64,000 nt of DNA from Escherichia coli (GTDB taxonomy: Bacteria > Pseudomonadota > Gammaproteobacteria > Enterobacterales > Enterobacteriaceae), in the NCBI RefSeq assembly GCF_003334765.1, contig NZ_QOWT01000015.1; one strand, 5' to 3'. The notes under the pieces were generated by a model. That model was not told the origin of the DNA. It ran no database searches and saw only the letters and a program-made list of their open reading frames with translations. Shown one piece after another: positions 19,026-27,402 of this stretch. Each line of letters begins with the position of its first letter. The first letter of the stretch is position 1. Position numbers and translations under genes: made by a program.

Positions 19026-19139
19026 CGTAACAGTCACAATTGAAACCATTAAATAACAATAGTTGTGGCGATAGTGGGTGCTAACTTACCAAATAATAAA
19101 TTTGGTGAATAATTGTCGCGTCATTCATTCCTGAACTAA

Positions 19140-19170
19140 GGCATTTCATTCCGTTCTGATGGCATTTCAT
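19140..19170 (+). promoter_or_regulatory. YpdB (LytTR response regulator) binding site: direct repeat GGCATTTCAT-N11-GGCATTTCAT upstream of yhjX
   Basis: Perfect 10 bp direct repeat with 11 bp spacer (two helical turns), ~85-115 bp upstream of the yhjX start; matches the motif recalled for YpdA/YpdB control of yhjX. Confidence 0.7.
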
Positions 19171-19253
19171 GCCGTTTTTCCCCAGGCATAAAGTGCACTT
19201 CGTTATGGTTGTCGGCAGAGATTTTTCCTTTTTATTACTGCAGGAATACTGCC

Positions 19254-20462
19254 ATGACACCTTCAAATTATCAGCGTACCCGCTGGCTGACACTCATCGG
19301 TACTATCATTACCCAGTTTGCGCTGGGGTCGGTTTATACCTGGAGCCTGTTTAATGGCGCGCTTTCCGCCAAGCTGGATGCGCCGGTAAGCCAGGTCGCT
19401 TTCTCTTTCGGCTTGTTAAGTCTGGGGCTGGCAATTTCGTCTTCTGTTGCGGGCAAATTACAGGAACGTTTTGGCGTTAAACGCGTCACCATGGCTTCCG
19501 GCATTTTGCTGGGATTAGGCTTCTTCCTGACAGCGCATTCTGACAACCTGATGATGCTGTGGTTAAGCGCCGGTGTGCTGGTGGGACTGGCAGATGGCGC
19601 GGGTTATCTGCTGACGCTCTCTAACTGTGTGAAGTGGTTCCCGGAGCGTAAAGGTCTGATCTCCGCGTTCGCTATCGGTTCTTATGGTCTGGGTAGCCTG
19701 GGTTTCAAATTTATCGACACGCAGCTGCTGGAAACGGTCGGTCTGGAAAAAACCTTTGTGATTTGGGGAGCGATTGCGCTGTTGATGATTGTTTTCGGCG
19801 CAACGTTAATGAAAGACGCACCAAAACAGGAAGTGAAAACCAGCAATGGTGTGGTGGAGAAAGATTACACGCTGGCAGAGTCGATGCGTAAACCGCAGTA
19901 CTGGATGTTAGCGGTAATGTTCCTGACCGCCTGCATGAGCGGCCTGTACGTGATTGGGGTAGCGAAAGATATCGCCCAAAGTCTGGCACACCTTGATGTG
20001 GTTTCCGCAGCCAATGCAGTCACTGTTATTTCCATCGCCAACCTTTCAGGTCGTCTGGTGCTGGGTATTCTGTCTGACAAAATCGCCCGTATCCGTGTTA
20101 TTACCATTGGTCAGGTGATATCGCTGGTGGGTATGGCGGCCCTGCTGTTTGCACCATTGAATGCAGTGACGTTCTTTGCAGCGATTGCCTGCGTGGCATT
20201 TAACTTTGGCGGCACTATTACCGTCTTTCCGTCACTGGTCAGTGAGTTCTTTGGCCTCAATAACCTGGCGAAAAACTACGGTGTGATTTATCTCGGTTTC
20301 GGTATCGGTAGCATTTGTGGTTCGATTATCGCCTCACTGTTTGGCGGCTTCTATGTGACCTTCTACGTGATTTTCGCCCTGCTGATTCTGTCATTGGCGC
20401 TTTCTACGACGATTCGTCAGCCAGAGCAGAAAATGTTGCGTGAGGCGCATGGCTCCCTTTAA
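19254..20462 (+). CDS. yhjX: MFS transporter YhjX (oxalate/formate antiporter family), pyruvate-inducible (402 aa)
   Basis: ORF track 19209..20462; start at MTPSNYQRTRWLTLIGTIITQFALGSVYTW...; 12 predicted TM segments. Confidence 0.9.
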   Translation: MTPSNYQRTRWLTLIGTIITQFALGSVYTWSLFNGALSAKLDAPVSQVAFSFGLLSLGLAISSSVAGKLQERFGVKRVTMASGILLGLGFFLTAHSDNLMMLWLSAGVLVGLADGAGYLLTLSNCVKWFPERKGLISAFAIGSYGLGSLGFKFIDTQLLETVGLEKTFVIWGAIALLMIVFGATLMKDAPKQEVKTSNGVVEKDYTLAESMRKPQYWMLAVMFLTACMSGLYVIGVAKDIAQSLAHLDVVSAANAVTVISIANLSGRLVLGILSDKIARIRVITIGQVISLVGMAALLFAPLNAVTFFAAIACVAFNFGGTITVFPSLVSEFFGLNNLAKNYGVIYLGFGIGSICGSIIASLFGGFYVTFYVIFALLILSLALSTTIRQPEQKMLREAHGSL

Positions 20463-26499: not shown

Positions 26500-27402
26500 A
26501 TGTCACAGGTTACTGAAAATAAAGTGATTAGCGCACCGGTGCCGATGACCCCGTTACAGGAGTTCTGGCACTATTTTAAACGCAACAAAGGCGCGGTCGT
26601 CGGGCTGGTTTACGTCGTCATCGTGCTGTTCATCGCGATCTTTGCCAACTGGATTGCACCCTATAACCCGGCGGAACAGTTCCGCGATGCACTGCTCGCC
26701 CCGCCAGCCTGGCAGGAAGGCGGCAGCATGGCGCACTTGCTGGGCACCGATGACGTAGGCCGTGATGTGCTGTCGCGCCTGATGTACGGTGCGCGCCTGT
26801 CGCTGCTGGTTGGCTGTCTGGTAGTTGTGTTATCGCTGATTATGGGCGTTATTCTCGGCCTGATCGCCGGTTACTTTGGCGGCCTGGTCGATAACATCAT
26901 TATGCGCGTGGTCGATATCATGCTGGCGCTGCCAAGTCTGCTGCTGGCGCTGGTGCTGGTGGCAATTTTCGGCCCGTCGATTGGTAACGCCGCGCTGGCA
27001 CTGACCTTCGTTGCCTTGCCGCACTATGTGCGCTTAACCCGCGCCGCCGTGCTGGTGGAAGTTAACCGCGATTACGTCACCGCGTCTCGCGTGGCGGGTG
27101 CCGGGGCGATGCGTCAGATGTTTATTAACATCTTCCCGAACTGCCTTGCGCCGCTGATTGTTCAGGCGTCGCTCGGTTTCTCTAACGCCATTCTCGATAT
27201 GGCTGCTCTTGGTTTCCTCGGCATGGGGGCACAGCCGCCAACGCCTGAGTGGGGCACCATGCTCTCCGACGTGTTGCAGTTCGCGCAAAGCGCCTGGTGG
27301 GTCGTGACCTTCCCGGGTCTGGCGATCCTGCTGACGGTGCTGGCATTTAACCTGATGGGTGACGGTCTGCGTGACGCGCTCGATCCCAAACTGAAGCAGT
27401 AA
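26500..27402 (+). CDS. dppC: Dipeptide ABC transporter permease (300 aa)
   Basis: ORF track; second permease of the operon, begins 9 bp after dppB. Confidence 0.96.

Follow-up and report, generated by a model that had tools for sequence, protein, structure and literature searches.

The direct repeat upstream of Escherichia coli yhjX matches the published YpdB/PyrR operator and is rigidly conserved in enterobacterial yhjX promoters

Introduction

What does the perfect direct repeat in front of yhjX do? In a 64-kb stretch of Escherichia coli DNA (the window, that is, the whole stretch analysed), a first-pass annotation made from the letters alone had picked out this repeat, read it as a LytTR-type YpdB motif and predicted that yhjX is induced by pyruvate through the two-component pair YpdA/YpdB. 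Occupancy of positions 19140-19170 by YpdB was reported earlier, as was the loss of pyruvate induction of yhjX when site A, the distal copy of the repeat, is changed by transversion or when ypdB is deleted. The abstract of Fried et al. 2013 reportedly gives the motif as GGCATTTCAT, present as two direct repeats with an 11-bp spacer, in agreement with the papers that cite it. The same study is said to include EMSA and in vivo site mutagenesis at the yhjX operator. Additional PyrR targets have reportedly been proposed by Miyake et al. 2019 from genomic SELEX.

Results

A perfect direct repeat in the yhjX promoter region

An exact string search of the window found GGCATTTCAT exactly twice, both times on the + strand, at 19140-19149 and 19161-19170. 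The two copies are separated by the 11-bp spacer TCCGTTCTGAT (19150-19160, + strand), as the first-pass annotation had described. The period of the pair is 21 bp, or 2.0 turns at 10.5 bp per turn, which bears out the earlier placement of both copies on one face of the helix. Relative to the yhjX ATG at 19254, the pair occupies -114 to -84, close to the ~85-115 bp first estimated, and gene and repeats both lie on the + strand. Identity in register between the K-12 copies widens to 16 of 17 bases (GGCATTTCATnCCGTT). The intergenic region that carries the repeats measures 228 bp (19026-19253). It lies between yhjY, upstream of the site, and yhjX; beyond yhjX come eptB, a tRNA-Pro gene and dppA.

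The gene had been named as yhjX, and its 402-aa translation, the RefSeq annotation and the identity of the locus to MG1655 all agree with that name. The 2.3 kb surrounding the repeats are 100% identical to E. coli K-12 MG1655, and a survey of 5,426 complete E. coli genomes found them in 5,423. Upstream of yhjX (b3547) in NC_000913.3, the repeat occupies 3,712,091-3,712,121 of the minus strand.

The yhjX coding sequence (19254-20462, + strand) encodes an MFS transporter of the oxalate/formate antiporter and monocarboxylate-transporter-like family. The protein scores 478 bits against NCBIfam TIGR00890 (oxalate/formate antiporter family MFS) and 342 bits against the equivalog NF049980 ("SfMCT, L-lactate MFS transporter"). 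Because the NF049980 cutoff of 320 is passed, RefSeq names YhjX an L-lactate transporter. This name is used in most RefSeq E. coli; the protein is a "putative transporter" in NC_000913.3 and a putative pyruvate transporter in the literature. Membership among the monocarboxylate transporters would be compatible with a role in pyruvate transport.

A repeat of this length carries little weight by itself. With periods of 11-40, the window holds 6 exact 10-mer repeats, compared with 1.6 +/- 1.2 in first-order Markov simulations, so that one such pair, taken alone, is no rarity. Since such repeats are unremarkable, the functional case must rest on context, literature and conservation. Their frequency is also what speaks for reading the pair as a chance duplication, or a remnant of replication slippage, that plays no regulatory role. 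Against this reading, the repeat pair pattern is unique in the window: when a degenerate pair, GCANTTCATNCC-N9-GCANTTCATNCC, is sought with at most three mismatches, the yhjX promoter locus alone matches, and 0.01 matches are expected. The cores of the repeats are nearly invariant over ~25 genera while the spacer varies freely (see below), and binding and mutagenesis data on the repeats are published (PMC4847170). A chance origin is excluded by this conservation pattern together with the mutagenesis, and we find it scarcely credible. We regard the repeat as non-random because it has an intergenic promoter position, is identical to a published operator and is deeply conserved.

Five further exact direct repeats of 10-11 bp, with periods of 16-33 bp, occur in the window at 26921, 28026, 32488, 54372 and 59224. 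Among them are TGCTGGCGCTG (period 21) and TGGCGCTGGTG (period 27). These are probably coding-sequence repeats.

The repeat pair coincides with the published YpdB binding sites

LytTR-type operators have been defined as two repeats of 9-11 nt, direct or inverted, with a spacer of 11-13 nt (PMC4847170), and the yhjX pair has repeats of 10 nt and a spacer of 11 nt. The same paper quotes the YpdB motif and gives the name site A to the sequence that we find, as an exact match, at 19140-19149 (+ strand). The second exact match, at 19161-19170 (+ strand), is the promoter-proximal site B. Moreover, the 58-bp core of the SPR oligonucleotide "yhjX YpdB bs" of PMC4847170 is identical, base for base, to 19117-19174 (+ strand). 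According to its authors, this oligonucleotide takes in every nucleotide that YpdB protected in earlier DNase I footprinting (PMC4847170). That paper credits the footprint, and in vivo promoter work on the site, to Fried et al. 2013 (PMC4847170). Recognition of a LytTR-type YpdB motif from the letters was therefore sound. We conclude, with a probability of about 0.96, that the repeat pair is the published pyruvate-responsive YpdB/PyrR operator of yhjX, comprising sites A and B. Nothing that we found contradicts this.

Binding at the operator has been dissected by SPR with the phosphomimetic variant YpdB-D53E, which is a monomer in solution (PMC4847170). On the native fragment, two binding events were resolved, one with a KD of 1.2 nM and slow on/off rates, assigned to site A, and one with a KD of 21 nM and fast on/off rates, assigned to site B (PMC4847170). 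A 10-base transversion of site A removed all binding of YpdB-D53E at concentrations up to 50 nM, and mutation of site B left a single binding event with a KD of 23 nM (PMC4847170). Site A is thus described as the high-affinity site that is filled first and site B as a lower-affinity site with fast on/off rates that needs A to be occupied, and a sequential "AB-BA" model was derived from these results (PMC4847170). The authors also state that nucleotides flanking the sites affect expression in vivo (PMC4847170). SPR with each repeat mutated, akin to the experiments that the first-pass annotation had proposed, is already in print (PMC4847170). The yhjX operator element is known in detail, and the observation made in the window is correct but ordinary.

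Pyruvate induction through YpdB, and why its paralogue BtsR is an unlikely binder

The expected induction of yhjX by pyruvate through YpdA/YpdB agrees with the literature (PMC5552118; PMC5431176; PMC7660256). External pyruvate induces yhjX via YpdA/YpdB with a threshold of ~600 uM (PMC5552118; PMC5431176), and 3 mM pyruvate raises yhjX mRNA 678-fold (PMC7660256). The two regulator genes had been placed elsewhere in the genome, and they are indeed distant. Now annotated pyrS/pyrR, ypdA/ypdB lie at 2,498,671-2,501,117 in NC_000913.3 (MG1655), 1.2 Mb from the yhjX repeat, and tblastn searches of the 64-kb window with YpdA and YpdB gave noise only (E above 1).

The signalling route can differ between strains. 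In the uropathogenic strain UTI89, yhjX induction has been ascribed to the non-cognate pair of BtsS and YpdB, and induction is absent from a btsS ypdB double mutant (PMC9765748). Statements that YpdA/YpdB has yhjX as its only target, or that YpdA is the cognate kinase, are qualified by later work that includes this BtsS-YpdB pairing in UPEC.

Could the paralogous LytTR regulator BtsR (YehT) bind the repeats instead of, or besides, YpdB? The Bts and Ypd systems are interconnected, BtsS signals to yhjX in UPEC (PMC9765748; PMC5431176), and both BtsR and YpdB use repeats with a period of ~21 bp. The DNA, however, argues otherwise. The BtsR motif, which we took from the yjiY oligonucleotide in PMC4847170, reads ACC[G/A]CT[C/T]A with a 13-bp spacer; it is unrelated to the yhjX repeat and absent from both strands of 19026-19253. 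A yjiY promoter fragment served as control DNA in the YpdB SPR experiments (PMC4847170), and the cross-talk reported in UPEC runs from kinase to regulator (BtsS to YpdB), not from regulator to DNA (PMC9765748). We consider binding by BtsR very improbable and retain YpdB/PyrR as the regulator that recognises the pair. The joint YpdB/YehT matrix that had been suggested for a motif scan is unsuitable, as the YehT/BtsR motif is a different one and does not occur in the intergenic region.

Cores and spacing are rigidly conserved across 80 yhjX promoters

We gathered 80 loci with YhjX orthologues (84-99% protein identity) from ~25 enterobacterial genera, among them Escherichia, Citrobacter, Enterobacter, Klebsiella, Kluyvera, Buttiauxella, Kosakonia, Lelliottia, Cedecea, Yokenella and Atlantibacter. 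The 300 bp upstream of each yhjX start were scanned for the motif pair, with spacers of 10, 11 or 12 bp allowed. At every one of the 80 loci the best pair had an 11-bp spacer, with 0-5 mismatches per 20 bases. An ungapped alignment anchored on this pair contains three blocks of ~2 bits per position, and the spacers hold 0.2-0.9 bits. None of the 80 aligned promoters has an indel in 19120-19178.

The conserved core is GCAnTTCAT(T/G)CC. It starts a base further right than the published 10-mer and extends three bases beyond it, occupying 19141-19152 at site A (GCATTTCATTCC) and 19162-19173 at site B (GCAnTTCATGCC). The first three bases of the spacer at 19150-19160 (TCC) consequently fall within the site A core, and the rest varies freely: information content across 19153-19161 is 0.2-1.2 bits, compared with ~2 bits in the cores. 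An invariant TTTT (19175-19178) follows the site B core in all 80 promoters. The least conserved base of the motif is the first G of the 10-mer, with counts of G 52 and T 28 at site A and T 43 and G 29 at site B. The boundaries of the published 10-mer thus differ from those of the evolutionarily conserved core.

Discrete conserved blocks with free spacers indicate selection on protein contacts held at a fixed helical phase. Two open reading frames overlap the region, at 19081-19293 (- strand) and 19169-19354 (+ strand). We rejected them as an explanation, since discrete 12-bp blocks and free spacers fit protein-binding sites and not coding sequence. Qualitatively the same conservation of the yhjX promoter motif was found earlier in a few species (PMC5552118).

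A third in-phase block upstream of site A

The third block of the alignment, which we call site 0 (GTCATTCATTCC), occupies 19120-19131 on the + strand. Its offset from the site A core is exactly 21 bp in the upstream direction, and in that register 9 of 12 bases agree between the two. Of the 12 positions of site 0, seven show no variation in the 80 sequences, and each of the other five keeps its main base in 61-77 of them (1.1-1.7 bits). Together with site A, it matches the degenerate pair pattern with two mismatches; this is the sole other match in the 64 kb, where 0.01 is expected. Site 0 is also invariant in five divergent E. coli strains, among which 19026-19090 varies. The published two-site model neither names site 0 as a binding site nor accounts for it.

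These features raise the possibility of a 63-bp array of three sites (0, A and B) in helical phase, in which site 0 would be touched by a third YpdB protomer or by an extended contact of the protomer bound at A. We hold this reading tentatively, at somewhat less than even odds. In its favour, the conservation of site 0 comes close to that of A and B, its 21-bp phasing is fixed and free of indels through 80 distinct promoters, it fits the pair pattern together with site A, and it stays constant among divergent strains in which DNA further upstream varies. The oligonucleotide said to cover all DNase I-protected nucleotides begins 3 bp before site 0 and includes it (19117-19174; PMC4847170). The reported influence of flanking nucleotides on expression in vivo points in the same direction (PMC4847170).

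Three observations weigh against it. In SPR, YpdB-D53E at up to 50 nM did not bind DNA in which site A was mutated and site 0 kept, and a single binding event was resolved when B was mutated and both 0 and A were kept (PMC4847170). It follows from these two results that site 0 does not act independently and that binding at A alone does not lead to its detectable occupation. The left part of site 0 also reads GTCA instead of GCAT and is itself conserved in that form, which would fit a different protein or a role in DNA shape equally well. That site 0 is a functional YpdB contact is a conjecture we would not quite bet on. Should the three-site array exist, site 0 might be needed for full activation or for pulsed kinetics, and the recognition unit might be the 12-mer GnnnTTCAT(T/G)CC in place of the 10-mer; we rate this, too, as possible but short of probable. 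The three-site reading extends the known two-site model and does not replace it.

We looked for a parallel case in the yjiY promoter. There, an upstream motif, GCCGCTCA, lies at a 20-bp offset, not a 21-bp one, and we rejected it as too weak.

A predicted promoter downstream of site B

On the basis of conservation in the 80 promoters, we predict that the -10 hexamer of the YpdB-dependent yhjX promoter is TATGGT at 19204-19209 (+ strand). T19204 and A19205 are invariant and T19209 is ~90% conserved; the variants seen are TATCGT, TATGGT (the K-12 form), TATTGT and TACTCT. In all 80 promoters this -10-like hexamer lies 29-30 nt from the site B core. At the -35 position the sequence is CCCAGG (19181-19186), no good match to a -35 element, which would suit a promoter that depends on an activator. 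The likely transcription start is the CA at 19216-19217 (+ strand), 7-8 nt after the -10, where C19216 is ~90% and A19217 100% conserved. If transcription does begin there, the cores would be centred near -49.5 (site B), -70.5 (site A) and -91.5 (site 0). We found no usable report of an experimentally mapped yhjX start site in the literature.

A generic sigma-70 scan gave a single hit, TTACCA-16-AATAAT (19086-19113), in a poorly conserved stretch upstream of the operator. For both reasons we rejected it as the regulated promoter. No CRP site emerged from a loose scan of the yhjY-yhjX intergenic region.

Further upstream, an imperfect palindrome, GATAGT-N4-ACTAAC (GATAGTGGGTGCTAAC in K-12), occupies 19070-19085, at a distance of ~170-185 bp from the yhjX ATG. 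Most of the 80 orthologous promoters retain it; it is missing from the Kluyvera, Yokenella and Pseudocitrobacter types, and the window holds no second good copy. The palindrome may be the site of a second regulator.

Site A varies naturally, and an IS element splits site B in one strain

Of 5426 complete E. coli genomes, 5388 contain a 44-bp stretch with the repeats, nearly all of them in a single copy. The K-12 44-mer is present exactly in 3,607 genomes, and in a further 1,627 it differs only by TGCATTTCAT at site A. The difference is a natural G-to-T polymorphism at 19140, the first base of site A, which occurs in ~30% of complete E. coli genomes. Alignment places T at 19140 in the extraintestinal pathogenic strain APEC O1, in NGF1 and in one isolate from blood. 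EC958, also an extraintestinal pathogen, shares the 94.2% identity class of such carriers, an assignment made by class and not from base 19140. The "perfect" repeat is therefore a feature of about two thirds of the E. coli species. The surveys of 5,426 E. coli genomes and of 80 species rule out that the repeat is a peculiarity of K-12.

In strain DX6 (NZ_CP126345.1; locus L004, 2630-3410), an IS1 element sits within site B (~19160-19168) and is flanked by a 9-bp target duplication (TGGCATTTC). The insertion parts site A and a truncated B from an intact B and the core promoter by ~0.77 kb. We predict that it would uncouple yhjX from YpdB control or put yhjX under an outward promoter of IS1. The yhjY autotransporter gene is disrupted by IS elements (an IS4-like ISVsa5 element; IS1X2) in strains BM28 lysU and CP131_Sichuan. 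DX6 and the yhjY insertions together suggest that the yhjY-yhjX interval is a recurrent IS target.

Discussion

Published experiments have established YpdB binding at the yhjX operator, the order in which its sites are occupied, the requirement for site A and the induction by pyruvate. Placed on the sequence described here, they suggest the following course of events. External pyruvate at ~0.6 mM or more, whether excreted in overflow or added, would activate YpdA/PyrS, a kinase of the LytS type; for uropathogenic strains, this role has been reported for its paralogue BtsS instead. The kinase would phosphorylate YpdB on Asp53, and the activated monomer would bind distal site A tightly and slowly (KD ~1 nM). 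Occupancy of A would then let a second monomer bind proximal site B, 21 bp away on the same face of the DNA (KD ~21 nM, fast on/off). Site B adjoins a promoter with a predicted -10 (TATGGT) and no usable -35, and because of this arrangement we infer that the protein bound at B recruits RNA polymerase. Quick release from B, and then from A, would yield pulsed expression, as in the "AB-BA" model. As the output, YhjX, an MFS transporter of the monocarboxylate type that has been implicated in pyruvate transport, would be induced several-hundred-fold.

A PyhjX-lux fusion is already in use as a pyruvate-responsive reporter. Finding the operator again from raw sequence shows that the first-stage reader recognises real regulatory sites, without yielding new biology. 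Beyond the literature consulted, the leads are limited to the third in-phase block, the shifted core, the common site A variant and the predicted -10. They should be useful mainly to those who model LytTR operators or engineer pyruvate biosensors.

Compared with the published E. coli yhjX sites A and B (Fried, Behr and Jung 2013; Behr, Heermann and Jung 2016, PMC4847170), the DNA, the 10-mer, the 11-bp spacer and the gene are the same, and there is no difference in sequence. What departs from the published two-site model is the core, shifted and extended to GCAnTTCAT(T/G)CC, and the addition of a third in-phase block at 19120-19131. The operators of AgrA (P2/P3), ComE, PlnC, VirR and AlgR resemble that of yhjX in being direct repeats of 9-11 nt set 11-13 nt apart, with a period of ~21 bp. 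These LytTR-type operators lie just upstream of a weak -35 and bind two protomers cooperatively (PMC4847170). Members of the family have no common consensus, and YpdB is reported to occupy A strictly before B and to clear B fast. A further comparison is the yjiY/btsT operator of BtsR (YehT), which belongs to a paralogous pyruvate-sensing LytS/LytTR system with a single transporter target. That operator also has a 21-bp period, built from an 8-mer and a 13-bp spacer; its motif, ACC[G/A]CT[C/T]A, differs from that of YpdB and is absent from the yhjX intergenic region. The two systems also differ in sensitivity, in that the Bts system senses micromolar pyruvate under nutrient limitation, whereas YpdA/YpdB needs ~0.6 mM (PMC5552118; PMC5431176).
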